A stretch of 45,959 bases of DNA from a virus. The position numbers were made by a program, and so were the translations under genes. The DNA is taken from IMG/VR virus record IMGVR_UViG_3300036893_000027; one strand, written 5' to 3'. Positions 33,683-40,239 of the stretch are shown in pieces. The notes under the pieces were generated by a model. It did not search any database. It worked only from the letters and a program-made list of their open reading frames with translations, and was not told the origin of the DNA. Every line of letters begins with the position of its first letter. Within the stretch, counting starts at the first letter, position 1.

Positions 33683-33967
33683 ATGAAAAAAGCAATAGAA
33701 AAACTACTTGCTTGTGCTAAATCTAAAGATTGGGATATACGAAATGTATCAACTAACAAAAAAGATCTTACAACTGCACATAATAAAAGATGTCAGGAGT
33801 TTGAACAAAAGTGTATAGAATACAATCAAGTTATAAGTGAACATAGAAAAGAATTGGCAGATTATGTAAGAGCAGCTTTAAAATTAGGATGCACTCAGTC
33901 TGACATTAACAGGCATTTAGGAGATTATAGTGCTCACGATATAGCTGAGCTAATTAAGGAGAAGTAA
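33683..33967 (+). CDS. hypothetical protein
   Basis: RBS TTTTAGGAGGTTT-ATG. Confidence 0.6.
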   Translation: MKKAIEKLLACAKSKDWDIRNVSTNKKDLTTAHNKRCQEFEQKCIEYNQVISEHRKELADYVRAALKLGCTQSDINRHLGDYSAHDIAELIKEK

Positions 33968-34296
33968 TGTCGATAGTCAAAGAGACCATTCTTTCAAAGG
34001 TAGAAGTAATAAACAAGAGATTTAGAAACAGGATGCAAAGATTACAAAAGCTTGAAGACGAAAAGAGAAAGAGAATAGGTAAACTTGACAGCAAAATAGA
34101 TGTATTGAGGGATGTTGCTACCCAAGACGAAAAGGATCTTATCGAACTTCTTGGAGCTTGTATAAAACAAGATTGCTCAATGCAAGAAATAAGTGATAGA
34201 ATGCCTGGAGTAGAAGCACACTGCATTTCAGAAATGATAGGAGAATACTATGGATCTAAAGTCGCTGAAACACCTAGTAGTAAAGGACGACCCTGA
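33967..34296 (+). CDS. hypothetical coiled-coil protein
   Basis: RBS AAGGAGAAGTA-ATG, ATGA coupling. Confidence 0.6.
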   Translation: MSIVKETILSKVEVINKRFRNRMQRLQKLEDEKRKRIGKLDSKIDVLRDVATQDEKDLIELLGACIKQDCSMQEISDRMPGVEAHCISEMIGEYYGSKVAETPSSKGRP

Positions 34297-34906
34297 AGTA
34301 GAAGTGAAGAAACCAGTTCAGCCAGTAGCTCACGTGGCTGTCAGTTCACCACCAATTGATAGCAGGATTTATTTTGATCCTGTTGACACTTCTCATCTCA
34401 ATGCTGCACCAGTTTCTAATCCAGCTGGATATCATCCTGTCCAGTCTGAGTGTTATCAAAATCTTCTGAAGAAGACAAACTTTGATTCTACTGAGGCTGG
34501 TAAAACACTACAGAAGTATCTCCATCCTCTTGAAAGTGTGCCGTTGGATCCAGGCACTAAAAACAAGATGGCCTTAGCTCAGGCTCGTGAAATTGAGGGC
34601 TTGACAGCAGACAAGGTTCTTGCTACATTTGATGGGCTTAAAGTGACTCTAAAGCAAGAAGAAGATCATTTTAATGACCTTATGTCTCAGGCTCAGGCCA
34701 AGGAAGTTGATGGTAGACAAGCTCAGATTAACTCTTTGTCAGAAGAGATTAATGCTAAGCAAGCTCAATTGGTTCAATTAAGTACAGATATGGCTTCTAT
34801 GCAGAACAAAATCCAGCAGAAGAAAATGGAGTTTAGTTCGGCAGTTCAGACCAGAGCATCAGAATTAGATCAGCAGAAAGCGCACTATCAAGGAATACTA
34901 CAATAG
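34250..34906 (+). CDS. coiled-coil protein
   Basis: RBS TAGGAGAATACT-ATG; Q/A/E-rich heptads in the C-terminal half. Confidence 0.6.
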   Translation: MDLKSLKHLVVKDDPEVEVKKPVQPVAHVAVSSPPIDSRIYFDPVDTSHLNAAPVSNPAGYHPVQSECYQNLLKKTNFDSTEAGKTLQKYLHPLESVPLDPGTKNKMALAQAREIEGLTADKVLATFDGLKVTLKQEEDHFNDLMSQAQAKEVDGRQAQINSLSEEINAKQAQLVQLSTDMASMQNKIQQKKMEFSSAVQTRASELDQQKAHYQGILQ

Positions 34907-34913
34907 GAGATTT

Positions 34914-35936
34914 ATGAGTTCACTACCTACTTTGCCATCTTCCACAGACCTCAAGTCGTTTTGGTCTCGTCCAGAAGGAAAGACAGGAGCTTTAGTCCTT
35001 CTTGCCGCAGCTGGACTTGGTATCTGGTTCTGGGGAAGCGTTGTTGGATTTCTTGTAATTATGTTGGCTGATACATTACACCTTGTTGAGCTTGGTGCAA
35101 TGTTGGCAGCCTTCCTTTATGTAATTTTCAGTAAGAGAACACAGATGATGTTCAGATTAGCAATGAGAGCTCTTACAGGTATAGTTATTACACTTGATCC
35201 TATTGGTATTTTGAAAGATAAACTGTTGCAGATGAAGAAGAAGCAACAGGTTGTTCAAACTCAAATTCGCAACTTAGCTGGGCAGAAACAGAAGCTTATT
35301 GATACTATCAAGAGTAACAACGACTTTGTTACTAATGGTATATCAAAGGCTTCTGAAGCTAAGCGTAGAGCTCTTGAAGCAAAAGATCCTGCTTATGCTG
35401 AGCGAATGAAACTTCAGCTTCAGCTTAATGTTAACAAGGCTGGAAGACGAGCTAAAGCTAACATTGGCTATCAGGAACTCTTGACCAAGATTTCTGGTAT
35501 ATATGACTTCCTGGTTAAGTTTGATGCTAATATCGACTTCTTCATCCAAGACACATCTGATGAAGTAGAACAAGCTGAGACAACAGATAGTGTTATAGGT
35601 TCGGCTTATAAAGCTTTCACCACAGCTTGGTCTATTATGAAGGGAAATGCTACCGAAGAAGATATGTATAATGGAGCCAAGCAGTATCTTGCTGATGAAG
35701 CAAGTCGTAAGCTTGGAGCTATTGATGACATTACTCGTGTAGCTCAAGGTTTCATCGACAATATGGACGTCGAGAATGGTGCAATAGGTGCTGACGCACT
35801 TAAGGCTTTCGACGCCTATCAACAGAAAATCCTGACATCGGGAGACAAAGATACGCAGTTCTTGCTTCCTGGTGCAACCCCTGTTCCTGTTTCAACCAAC
35901 TCACAAGCTGATGAATATGTCAGCTTCCTAAAATAA
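34914..35936 (+). CDS. membrane-anchored coiled-coil protein (possibly PspA/IM30-like)
   Basis: Two N-terminal TM helices followed by about 200 aa of coiled coil (DPIGILKDKLLQMKKKQQVVQTQIRNLAGQKQKL..); the PspA assignment is tentative. Confidence 0.65.
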   Translation: MSSLPTLPSSTDLKSFWSRPEGKTGALVLLAAAGLGIWFWGSVVGFLVIMLADTLHLVELGAMLAAFLYVIFSKRTQMMFRLAMRALTGIVITLDPIGILKDKLLQMKKKQQVVQTQIRNLAGQKQKLIDTIKSNNDFVTNGISKASEAKRRALEAKDPAYAERMKLQLQLNVNKAGRRAKANIGYQELLTKISGIYDFLVKFDANIDFFIQDTSDEVEQAETTDSVIGSAYKAFTTAWSIMKGNATEEDMYNGAKQYLADEASRKLGAIDDITRVAQGFIDNMDVENGAIGADALKAFDAYQQKILTSGDKDTQFLLPGATPVPVSTNSQADEYVSFLK

Positions 35937-35948
35937 AGGAGAAAGAAA

Positions 35949-38731: not shown

Positions 38732-38868
38732 ACTATCCAATAGAATTTAGTTACTATTTTGCTTTGGGATTTGGACTTATTAGTATATTGATTGGTGGAC
38801 CAATTCAAAGTTTAGTAGGAATAGTATTTCTATTCTACGCTTGCTATGGATTGGTTTGGAGCAAATAA
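38728..38868 (+). CDS. small transmembrane protein (46 aa)
   Basis: ATGA overlap with the permease stop; RBS GGAGAGAAA; hydrophobic. Confidence 0.4.
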   Translation: MNYPIEFSYYFALGFGLISILIGGPIQSLVGIVFLFYACYGLVWSK

Positions 38869-39009
38869 ATGGAACTAAAGTCATTAGCGATAGTACTTCT
38901 TTCAATTGCTATATTTATGTTTCTAATTCCACCAATAACACTAAGTTTTAATATAGCTGGTGTAATATTTTTAGCCGGGTTTATTTACCTATGGGATTCT
39001 GAAGAATGA
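38869..39009 (+). CDS. small transmembrane protein (46 aa)
   Basis: ATG immediately after the previous stop; its stop overlaps the ABC ATPase start (ATGA). Confidence 0.4.
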   Translation: MELKSLAIVLLSIAIFMFLIPPITLSFNIAGVIFLAGFIYLWDSEE

Positions 39010-39815
39010 ATATAGAACAGGGTCCAGTTCTTCTGAAGATAGAAGATGTTTGCTTAAATTATGGCAACAATGTTATTTTAAGCCACGTAAATGCTGAAAT
39101 AGCAGAGATTAAGAGAGAAACGGGCAAAGGACAGATAGTAGGAGTGTTAGGCCCTTCTGGTATAGGCAAGACTCAATTATTCAGGATTATAGCAGGACTG
39201 AATAAACCTACGAGCGGAAAGGTATCACTTAACAACAATGTGAGATCCGTACAGGCGGGGCAAGTCGGCGTTGTGGCGCAGACGTATCCTCTATTCGATC
39301 ACAGAACGGTTTTGGGGAATCTGCTGCTGGCAGCGAAAAGGAAAGATAAGAAAACGGCTAAGGACAGGGTAATGACTTACCTTGAAGAATTTGACCTTAC
39401 TGATAAGAAATATCATTATCCTATGCAATTATCAGGAGGTCAAAGACAAAGGATAGCTATTATCCAACAGATTTTATGCTCTGACCATTTCCTTTTGATG
39501 GATGAACCTTTCTCAGGGCTGGATCTTATTTCTTTAACAAAGGTCTCCGAGCTTATACAAAAGGTAGCCAACCTTGATGAGCTAAATACTATTGTTATCG
39601 TAAGTCACGATATTACAACAACAGCCAGTGTCGCAGACCATTTATGGTTAATAGGAAGAGACAGGGACGAACAAGGCACTATCATTCCAGGGGCTAAAAT
39701 AGTTCAAAATTATGACCTCGCAGCCCTTGACTTATGCTGGCATCCTGATATAATAACTCAACCTCAATTTATGCAATTCGTGGCCGAGGTTAAACAAAGA
39801 TTTGTAACCCTATGA
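39006..39815 (+). CDS. ABC transporter ATP-binding protein
   Basis: Walker A GPSGIGKT, signature LSGGQRQRIAI, Walker B LLMDEPFSGLD, H-loop SHD. Confidence 0.85.
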   Translation: MNIEQGPVLLKIEDVCLNYGNNVILSHVNAEIAEIKRETGKGQIVGVLGPSGIGKTQLFRIIAGLNKPTSGKVSLNNNVRSVQAGQVGVVAQTYPLFDHRTVLGNLLLAAKRKDKKTAKDRVMTYLEEFDLTDKKYHYPMQLSGGQRQRIAIIQQILCSDHFLLMDEPFSGLDLISLTKVSELIQKVANLDELNTIVIVSHDITTTASVADHLWLIGRDRDEQGTIIPGAKIVQNYDLAALDLCWHPDIITQPQFMQFVAEVKQRFVTL

Positions 39816-39930
39816 GAGTAGGCAGAGAATTATTCATTATTTTGACAACAACAAGATGGACTTTCTGTCATAGTAAGATAAGGGTAGGGAAGGTTAGTGC
39901 AAATAGAATAAAACCGAAAAGGAGAAGAAA

Positions 39931-40239
39931 ATGAAGATAGTAGTAAGTAAGGAAGATATTGAAAAAGGAAGAAAGCAAGATGGAAGTCGATGTCCTATTG
40001 CCATAGCCACCCGTAGGGCTACTGGATTAAAGGGTATAACGGTAGGAATTGGCGAAATTAAGAGAGAGGTCAAAGGTAAAAAAGTAATTTTCCATTACTT
40101 AAACAAAAAAGCTCGTAACTTTGTGGTCGATTTCGATGACACGTGGGGTGACGGAGGAGGAAGGAAGTTAGTCAAGCCCTTTTCATTCAATATTCCTGTC
40201 TCTCACTTGATTAAAGTAGGATACAGGAAGGCCAAGTAG
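39931..40239 (+). CDS. small protein, paralog B of 15747-16121
   Basis: RBS AAAAGGAGAAGAAA-ATG; shares the MKIxxxKExIxxG..CPxAxA..ATGxKxI and PFSF(D/N)xP blocks with paralog A. Confidence 0.6.
   Translation: MKIVVSKEDIEKGRKQDGSRCPIAIATRRATGLKGITVGIGEIKREVKGKKVIFHYLNKKARNFVVDFDDTWGDGGGRKLVKPFSFNIPVSHLIKVGYRKAK

Follow-up and report, generated by a model that had tools for sequence, protein, structure and literature searches.

A conserved five-gene module, probably centred on an atypical NitT/TauT-family ABC importer, in huge phages and Acidobacteriota

The window analysed here is a stretch of 45,959 nucleotides of viral DNA (IMG/VR record IMGVR_UViG_3300036893_000027), in which the whole interval from 33,683 to 40,239 is taken up by 11 closely packed genes on the + strand. 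The same open reading frames were called by an independent gene caller on an identical contig of 99.9 kb. A preliminary description of this DNA had spoken of nine consecutive genes; every gene it described is present in its place on the + strand, but the count was too low, since one small upstream gene and the last gene, g11, had been left out. Neighbouring genes overlap by 1, 47, 20, 4 or 4 nt or are separated by gaps of 0–16 nt, the sole wide gap being the 115 nt between g10 and g11, and GGAG-type ribosome-binding sites precede most of the genes. Five of them, in the order g03-g04-g05-g07-g10, make up a conserved module, probably centred on an atypical ABC importer of the NitT/TauT family.

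The small genes around and inside the module have a much narrower distribution. At the upstream end, g01 (33,683–33,967, + strand, 94 aa) is a gene specific to this phage and outside the conserved module, with a GGAGG ribosome-binding site and a GC3 of 0.19; its HTH-like matches are weak (phrog_686 HTH, 6e-4 only), and no homologue was found in the bacterial or other phage loci examined. The adjoining g02 (33,967–34,296, +, 109 aa) encodes a small, lineage-specific coiled-coil protein, also outside the module, that gave nothing beyond coiled-coil noise matches against Pfam and PHROG-type profiles and is missing from all other loci examined. Downstream, g11 (39,931–40,239, +, 102 aa) is a phage protein that matches phrog_19191 at 6e-13; it does not belong to the module and is not adjacent to it in the other loci examined. 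Between the binding-protein and permease genes sits g06 (37,786–37,959, +, 57 aa), a Zn-ribbon-like, phage-only accessory with cysteines at positions 6, 8, 11, 27 and 30. All five are kept in homologues from three other loci (L010, 58% identity; L091, 52%; L090, 35%), in keeping with the earlier reading of a CxxC Zn-ribbon peptide, and no homologue was found in any bacterial operon examined. The gap between permease and ATPase genes is filled exactly by g08 (38,728–38,868, +) and g09 (38,869–39,009, +), the first overlapping g07 by 4 nt (GGAG ribosome-binding site, GC3 0.23) and the second abutting g08 and overlapping g10 by 4 nt (GC3 0.17). Both encode hydrophobic peptides of 46 aa, as had been described, with one strong TM segment in g09. 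The similarity between the two is not significant (41% of shuffles reach an equal score), and neither has a homologue in any other locus examined.

The permease gene, g07 (37,940–38,731, +, 263 aa), scores 16.9 bits against BPD_transp_1 when taken alone, which is under the Pfam cut-off of 26.4; five of seven members of its family match the model, the best at 5.5e-15. The NitT/TauT assignment on which the preliminary description had staked its reading holds: a profile of the g07 family finds CmpB (2.8e-12) and NrtB (5.9e-12) among PDB sequences over positions 23–258 of 264, and NCBIfam matches are to SaoP (3.4e-9), SsuC (8e-4) and NtrB (1.7e-3). The EAA loop is present, at aa 158–181, but in a degenerate form (DLARTLG-x9-VIVLG). 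Identity to Terriglobales homologues is 59–70%. The ATPase, g10 (39,006–39,815, +, 269 aa), matches Pfam ABC_tran at 4.4e-26 and has every catalytic motif intact, in line with the complete ATPase described before: Walker A (GPSGIGKT, 49–56), the Q-loop (Q92), LSGGQ (142–146), Walker B (FLLMDE, 162–167), the D-loop (SGLD, 170–173) and the H-loop (SHD, 200–202). It ends in a family-specific extension of about 50 aa and is 58–69% identical to Terriglobales proteins, 37% to that of LR756500, 36% to that of LR756501 and 32% to that of Lak-C1. By its sequence, the set reads as a complete ABC transporter, a type I importer of the NitT/TauT family.

The module shares with SsuABC/TauABC of E. coli and NrtABCD/CmpABCD of cyanobacteria (TC 3.A.1.16/17) the use of one permease gene and one ATPase gene, a permease related to NrtB, CmpB and SsuC, and a binding protein predicted to belong to class II, with the TauA/SsuA/NrtA fold. 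Homodimeric permeases and ATPases are usual in the SsuBC and TauBC family, and the single gene for each here fits a transporter that would be homodimeric in both. It differs from these systems in that g05 adds a TM anchor and a C-terminal OmpA-like peptidoglycan-binding domain, in a solute-binding domain too divergent for any sequence model, and in the conserved g03 and g04, which have no counterpart there. All NCBIfam scores lie far under the equivalog cut-offs, so the substrate of these known systems cannot be transferred to the module.

The binding protein, g05 (35,949–37,769, +, 606 aa), begins with a TM anchor (aa 6–29, nt 35,964–36,035, +) and a disordered linker (aa 30–75, +), and ends in an OmpA-like peptidoglycan-binding domain (aa 488–606, nt 37,410–37,766, +). 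The OmpA_C ending noted previously is confirmed by Pfam (PF00691, E=1.6e-14, exceeding the gathering score), with the motifs TDNTG, NRRLSADRA and NRRVE and the conserved peptidoglycan-contacting Asp and Arg all present. The suggestion that residues 100–300 might carry a substrate-binding domain is consistent with the predicted structure, in which a TauA/SsuA/NrtA-fold domain spans aa ~76–470 (nt ~36,174–37,358, +). By sequence, that domain matches no SBP family in Pfam or NCBIfam significantly, and it is the predicted structure, together with the accompanying permease, that points to g05 as the transporter's own binding protein, of the NMT1/SsuA/TauA/NrtA class. A set of g05 relatives, type B (from Lak, LR756501 and Saprospiraceae), matches Pfam NMT1_2/NMT1 above the gathering score and NCBIfam SsuA_fam at up to 7e-24. 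We know of no characterised SBP that is both tethered to peptidoglycan and anchored in the membrane. The closest likeness is with MotB, PomB, TssL-TagL and YiaD, which are likewise anchored in the inner membrane at the N-terminus and carry, after a periplasmic linker, an OmpA-like domain at the C-terminus in which the peptidoglycan-binding D/R motif is conserved. In these proteins, however, no domain for solute binding lies between the anchor and the OmpA domain, and their partners are ion channels or secretion baseplates, whereas the partner of g05 is an ABC transporter. Given its double tethering, g05 could have a role other than transport.

The first two genes of the module encode a soluble protein and a membrane protein. 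The former, g03 (34,250–34,906, +, 218 aa), starts with a disordered stretch, continues into a helical domain that is conserved, and ends in a coiled coil; it shows no TM segment by hydropathy, matches no Pfam or NCBIfam family, and is 36–48% identical to the gene in the same position in Terriglobales operons. The latter, g04 (34,914–35,936, +, 340 aa), is the signature gene of the module. It had been described as a double-TM protein, which agrees with hydrophobic stretches at about residues 26–72 and with an AF2 model in which helices 20–50 and 54–71 are followed by a long helical hairpin, the putative cytoplasmic domain. The positive-inside rule suggests an N-in/C-in topology. Its N-terminal motif, KSFWSRPEGKTG, and a second one, DPIGILK, are cytoplasmic membrane-proximal motifs that are extremely conserved across phyla; identity over the protein is 47–52% to Terriglobales homologues and 26–33% to those of Bacteroidota and Lak. 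The g04 family comprises 1094 clusters at 50% identity, all of about 340–350 aa, and has no Pfam model. Wherever g04 occurs in the phage loci, and in Bacteroidota as well, a family HMM finds a g03 homologue directly upstream.

The comparison of gene neighbourhoods called for in the preliminary description shows the five-gene order to be conserved across many huge phages and Acidobacteriota from soil. The complete module is found in this order in about 40 of 43 chromosomal loci of the Acidobacteriota type, on contigs of up to 6.6 Mb, the remaining loci being cut by contig ends. The same order is seen in two phage-like contigs (L009 and L010) and in the huge phages LR756500, LR756501/3 and Lak-C1, a set that covers phages of 462 kb and 735 kb and the Lak megaphages. 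Among 12 IMG/VR contigs of 26–342 kb, at least nine carry the module complete, with phage RNA ligase, DNA ligase and DnaB in the flanks.

We consider it reasonably likely that the module is a nutrient importer carried by the phage under the logic of auxiliary metabolic genes. In this proposal, g05 would stand in the periplasm, held to the inner membrane by its N-terminal TM helix and to the peptidoglycan by its C-terminal domain. Its TauA/SsuA/NrtA-fold domain would catch a small solute and hand it to a homodimer of the g07 permease, with import driven by a homodimer of the g10 ATPase. The g04 membrane hairpin and the soluble g03 would form an accessory pair at the cytoplasmic face that probably positions or regulates the transporter. 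Expressed during infection, the module would keep up or raise the uptake of a solute that the phage needs.

The same parts could be put to a different use, although we think this unlikely: a wall-tethered binding protein with an ABC core may act as an envelope sensor or a mechanical anchor, with g03 and g04 as the cytoplasmic output or scaffold, and might organise a place on the membrane where replication or assembly goes on, or take part in superinfection exclusion. A diffusing SBP is not usually fixed at both ends as g05 is, an arrangement like that of the MotB, PomB and TssL anchors, and it would fit such a device that the transporter in phages is always accompanied by g03 and g04, that the two g04 motifs are so strongly conserved, and that the module is kept in huge phages at loci whose GC content runs from 0.25 to 0.63. 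However, all the motifs that a working importer needs for catalysis and coupling are intact, the permease has the standard TMD of type I importers, and no domain for sensor output, such as a kinase or GGDEF domain, is present. Matches to PADLOC defence-system models reflect shared domains only: ZorB is matched through the OmpA domain, and generic ATPases through the ABC ATPase.

Somewhat less likely still, the g03-g04 pair and the three-gene ABC importer may be two independent units that happen to be neighbours. The pair occurs without adjacent ABC genes in at least 25 Bacteroidota loci, including chromosomal loci of Saprospiraceae, Haliscomenobacter, Bacteroidales and Maribacter, and it therefore has a function that does not depend on the transporter; in bacteria, the g03-g04 intergenic gap exceeds the other gaps of the module. 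Against this stands the position of the pair directly upstream, in the same order, in more than 55 transporter-carrying loci from Acidobacteriota to Lak phages. This linkage persists at 20–30% identity and with unrelated small ORFs inserted between the genes, which argues for selection on the linkage itself. Both genes belong to the module, conserved along with the rest of it, and are not decoration.

A more speculative reading, to which we give a low probability, is that the module was not borrowed as a nutrient importer but may be primarily an invention of huge phages, an envelope-spanning complex later acquired and domesticated by Terriglobales. In such a complex, a wall anchor would be joined to an ABC motor in the inner membrane and to a pair of cytoplasmic coiled-coil proteins. 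The module would then be a hallmark of Mahaphage-type phages (the phage of the window, LR756500, the 735-kb phage and Lak) and might have a role in infection beyond uptake, such as fixing the membrane site at which replication or assembly takes place, or the import of a phage-specific effector or precursor. This reading is compatible with neighbour-joining (NJ) trees, where the phage copies form a grade and a tight bacterial clade is nested within it.

Very improbable is a device for membrane remodelling, of the PspA/ESCRT-III kind, or for exporting the downstream MVP-like shell protein; a PspA/IM30-like g04 and export or insertion of the shell had both been raised earlier. The g04 model does resemble PspA/Vipp1/ESCRT-III and BAR proteins in having a long hairpin of antiparallel helices on the cytoplasmic side of the membrane, but its sequence is unrelated and it has two TM helices of its own. 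Neither Pfam nor NCBIfam gives a match of g04 to PspA_IM30 (PF04012), a profile of 26 g04 homologues finds no PspA and no Vipp1 among PDB sequences, and in fold comparisons I-BAR, BAR and designed helical bundles score equal to or above the PspA/ESCRT-III-like folds, so that the likeness to PspA/IM30 has no specific support. As for export or insertion of the shell, the transporter has the fold of a type I importer and the MVP link is not conserved, the MVP homologues of LR756500 and LR756501 lying more than 300 kb from their cassettes and the IMG/VR loci showing none within some 8 kb of theirs.

The cassette is a long-resident phage copy and not host contamination. Its GC3 of 0.34–0.41 is close to that of the neighbouring phage genes (0.38–0.39) and unlike that of the bacterial operon (0.68–0.77). 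The nearest bacterial operons, on Terriglobales chromosomes, are only 36–69% identical; over g05, g07 and g10 together no bacterial copy comes closer than about 67%, whereas identity among the bacterial copies is about 90%. Two runs, SRR23247728 and SRR11569229, gave an identical cassette on assembly, with all proteins at 100%, and the cassette proteins are also present at JGI. A chimeric assembly that took in host DNA, the refuting case set out in the preliminary description, or else a capture from the host in very recent times, could draw on the full-length homologues at 59–69% on Acidobacteriota chromosomal contigs of 1.3–6.6 Mb, but this scarcely credible explanation is refuted by composition and divergence, and the phage-only ORFs g06, g08 and g09 interleaved with the module and the recovery from two runs also speak against it. 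The module suggests that the host of the phage is a member of the Acidobacteriota (Terriglobales).

The cassette has cellular homologues, phage-gene flanks and a phage-like composition, as auxiliary metabolic genes do; it is flanked by PTH2, tRNA-Leu, SSB, PDF and RNA ligases, with NAMPT and NUDIX 6–10 kb upstream. There are precedents for host-type uptake functions in phages beside metabolic or repair genes: jumbo phages carry the uptake component PnuC (PMC11662467), and pstS is carried by cyanophages, as cited in PMC10746233. Both are single genes that join or duplicate host systems. The present module, in contrast, has a full set of binding protein, permease and ATPase with two accessory genes, and is conserved across a deep radiation of huge phages; we found no description of it in the huge-phage papers searched. 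The preliminary description had called complete ABC modules rare on phages, and complete importers are indeed seldom documented, but this one recurs in huge phages.

The analysis defines two unannotated protein families, g04, which falls into about 1,100 clusters when grouped at 50% identity, and its partner g03, that span Acidobacteriota, Bacteroidota and megaphages, and the predicted peptidoglycan-tethered solute-binding protein represents an uncharacterised architecture. Whether the module passed from phage to host or from host to phage is a testable question that these findings raise. If the importer works as proposed, the module would be a conserved and testable case of huge phages supplying their own uptake machinery.

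The cassette comprises 11 densely packed genes (g01 to g11) on the + strand of window 33683-40239, and an independent gene caller returned identical ORFs on a 99.9-kb contig of identical sequence from another data set. Neighbouring genes overlap by 1-47 nt or are separated by gaps of 0-16 nt, the sole exception being the 115 nt before g11, and most of them carry GGAG-type ribosome-binding sites. A tRNA-Leu gene (CAA; 33583-33668) lies directly upstream and ends 14 nt before the start of g01; the other three tRNA genes of the window are Met-CAT (6111-6186), Lys-CTT (18408-18483) and Cys-GCA (45286-45362). 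A scan of promoters and terminators gave no more candidates than were obtained with shuffled sequences, the single convincing hairpin of the terminator scan being located at 43226-43249, 3' of the SSB gene. All genes are carried by one strand, and those around the cassette include genes for PNKP, two RNA ligases, NAMPT, a NUDIX protein, NADAR, PTH2, a SpoU methylase, SSB and peptide deformylase. Together with the tRNA genes, this neighbourhood is what is usually seen in large or huge phages. Genes for RNA repair and NAD metabolism are densely clustered in the interval 22232-33454: PNKP (22232-23212), an Rnl2-like ligase (25021-26229), NUDIX (26595-27581), NAMPT (27539-28957), Rnl1 (28966-30138), the SpoU methylase (30649-31272), NADAR (31954-32418) and PTH2 (33110-33454). 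RNA ligase and DNA ligase genes are also found near the cassette in two IMG/VR contigs, L092 and L095. The GC skew is positive across the entire window, and the AT skew, slightly below zero (about -0.03) up to roughly 11-12 kb, is clearly positive (about +0.15) thereafter.

Five of these genes (g03, g04, g05, g07 and g10) form one module: an ABC importer of the NitT/TauT type, whose binding protein is tethered to the wall, and two partner proteins that are uncharacterised. The ATPase, g10, is complete (Pfam ABC_tran, 4.4e-26) with every motif located; its family matches did not discriminate between ATPase subfamilies. As a single sequence the permease g07 falls below the Pfam threshold for BPD_transp_1. 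Its NCBIfam matches are the NitT/TauT permeases SaoP, SsuC and NtrB, and a profile built from seven family members matched the full length of two permeases of solved structure, CmpB (2.8e-12) and NrtB (5.9e-12), which bears out the NitT/TauT assignment made in the preliminary description. A substrate-binding domain in the 606-aa protein g05, at first a guess, is also recovered in the AlphaFold model (pLDDT 80), which places a TM helix at residues 6-29 and, beyond a disordered linker, a domain of two lobes (about 76-470) and then an OmpA-like domain (Pfam OmpA, 498-597). No full-length equivalent of g05 appeared in the BFVD fold search, where the matches were OmpA-domain proteins only. Relatives of g05 come in two subtypes. 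Type A (about 600 aa, divergent) is the form present in the window, in the Terriglobales operons and in the 462-kb phage LR756500; type B (about 530 aa) occurs in Lak, LR756501 and Saprospiraceae, and its sequence matches are NMT1_2/NMT1, SsuA_fam and a putative urea-binding protein model. The NCBIfam equivalog scores are all far under the cut-off, so that no substrate can be transferred from those families. In the binding domain of g05, numerous Asp, Glu and Trp positions are invariant (W85, E86, W87, E190, D191, D217, D219, W220, W292 and D296), a hint that the ligand may be polar or cationic and organic and not a simple oxyanion.

In the mechanism that we propose, the periplasmic binding domain of g05, held by both the inner membrane and the peptidoglycan, would pass a small solute on to a homodimer of the permease, with import powered by a homodimer of the ATPase; g03 and g04 would form a coiled-coil pair on the cytoplasmic face. 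A complex that senses or anchors, instead of importing, is an unlikely reading of the same genes that nevertheless deserves some weight. The PADLOC matches of the cassette are at domain level only, and its identification as a defence system was rejected.

No DNA match to the cassette was found among 50,697 phage records, and its relatives were reached by protein-level searches only. The module is present in unchanged order in LR756500, in LR756501/LR756503 (735 kb), in Lak megaphages, in a 104-kb phage-like contig (L009) and in a 5-kb fragment (L010). The same is true for 9 of the 12 IMG/VR contigs that a search with g04 recovered (26-342 kb; locus GC 0.43-0.63), where the module is flanked by phage RNA ligase, DNA ligase and DnaB genes. 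In one 187-kb contig (IMGVR_UViG_3300049728_000159; L089, 9086-11700), the g05 homologue is reduced to about its first 100 aa and several unrelated ORFs stand between this remnant and the permease; the binding-protein gene there seems to have been disrupted or replaced. Among bacteria, the order g03-g04-g05-g07-g10 is kept on Acidobacteriota MAG contigs of up to 6.6 Mb (Terriglobales, Ca. Sulfotelmatobacter). All five genes occur in about 40 of 43 Acidobacteriota-type loci, the rest being interrupted by contig ends, and identities to the window proteins are 34-48% (g03), 46-52% (g04), 59-65% (g05), 59-70% (g07) and 58-69% (g10). One locus in an Anaeromyxobacteraceae bin also carries the module. 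A 141-aa membrane protein with four TM segments (71-96% identity between species) is encoded upstream of the operon in 30 of the 43 bacterial loci (7047-7472 in the Terriglobales locus L006, and equivalent positions) and has no counterpart in the phages. The other flanks differ between most Terriglobales species, despite about 90% identity of the operon proteins, and this difference suggests that the location of the operon is not fixed.

The two partners have their own distribution. The protein g03 is a soluble coiled coil, and g04 is predicted, from hydropathy and structure modelling, to have a pair of TM helices and, C-terminal to them, a long helical hairpin. Searches of g01-g04 against Pfam, NCBIfam and PHROGs gave nothing beyond coiled-coil noise. 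At 50% identity the g04 family falls into about 1,100 clusters, uniform in length, with no model in Pfam or NCBIfam, and its motif KSFWSRPEGKTG is almost invariant across Acidobacteriota and Bacteroidota. Bacteroidota (Saprospiraceae, Haliscomenobacter, Bacteroidales, Maribacter) have the g03-g04 pair, usually with no ABC genes; in the phage modules a g03 homologue always lies immediately 5' of g04. That the cassette holds two independent units which merely happen to adjoin is a rather improbable explanation. The linkage of the pair to the transporter is constant in phages and therefore suggests a role of g03 and g04 in its positioning or regulation.

A PspA-like or MVP-exporting device, which the preliminary description had raised among several options, is very improbable. 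There is no sequence relation between g04 and PspA, and the fold matches are generic, with I-BAR (10.9) scoring above Vipp1 (9.8) and PspA (9.1), so that the PspA identity is unsupported. The link to the major-vault-protein-like gene fares no better, because their adjacency is not conserved: the homologues in LR756500 and LR756501 lie >300 kb from the ABC cassettes of those genomes. The MVP-like protein itself (40269-42692, +, 807 aa) has an MVP_shoulder domain (3.9e-30), a Vault_3 match (6e-7) and a coiled-coil tail, with no PHROG family match. Its full-length homologues in LR756500 and LR756501/3 (42-43% identity) point to kinship of the window phage with both. What the preliminary description had observed is confirmed, and its interpretation is partly supported.

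The bacterial operons have no counterparts of g01, g02, g06, g08, g09 and g11, and the small ORFs inserted between module genes differ from phage to phage. Here g06 is a Zn-ribbon-like peptide with five Cys residues and homologues in three other phage contigs, and each of g08 and g09 is a hydrophobic peptide of 46 aa; the two were rejected as tandem duplicates, their local alignment scoring no better than shuffles. The 102-aa g11 (39931-40239, +), 3' of the ATPase gene, matches phrog_19191 (6e-13). A 151-aa ORF 3' of the ATPase gene in L009 (13895-14350) appears, by eye only, to have a Cys-x-(I/L)A-x-A motif in common with it.

A chimeric assembly or recent capture of host DNA is scarcely credible: GC3 is 0.34-0.41 in the cassette and 0.38-0.39 in neighbouring phage genes, as against 0.68-0.77 in the bacterial operon; phage-only ORFs are interspersed among the module genes; the cassette was assembled alike in two separate runs, with all proteins 100% identical; and over g05, g07 and g10 the window phage shares at most 67% identity with any bacterial copy, while identity among the bacterial copies is about 90%. 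In neighbour-joining trees of these three proteins, concatenated, a tight Terriglobales clade and the Anaeromyxobacteraceae copy are nested in a grade of phage copies. Such nesting would fit either transfer from phage to bacterium or capture from hosts not yet sampled, with fast evolution in the phages afterwards; the trees, being distance-based, without bootstrap and rooted on type B, do not decide the direction. A 15.8-kb contig binned as Ca. Saccharibacteria (CAYOGJ010000004.1; L075) carries the whole module, with identities of 41-50%, and groups among the phage copies; it is perhaps a piece of phage DNA that was misbinned, and not Saccharibacteria DNA. For g04, the nearest bacterial phylum is Bacteroidota for Lak and LR756501 and Acidobacteriota for the window. 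Since the nearest phylum of the other phage copies is that of the likely host, this affinity points to Acidobacteriota as the probable host of the window phage.

The largest genomes in the study of Al-Shayeb et al. (PMC7162821) and Lak were placed there in one clade, Mahaphage; the transporter is not mentioned in that paper, and no description of the module was found in the literature searched. What gives the module its importance is its conservation in the largest known phages, together with the unannotated protein families that it defines.
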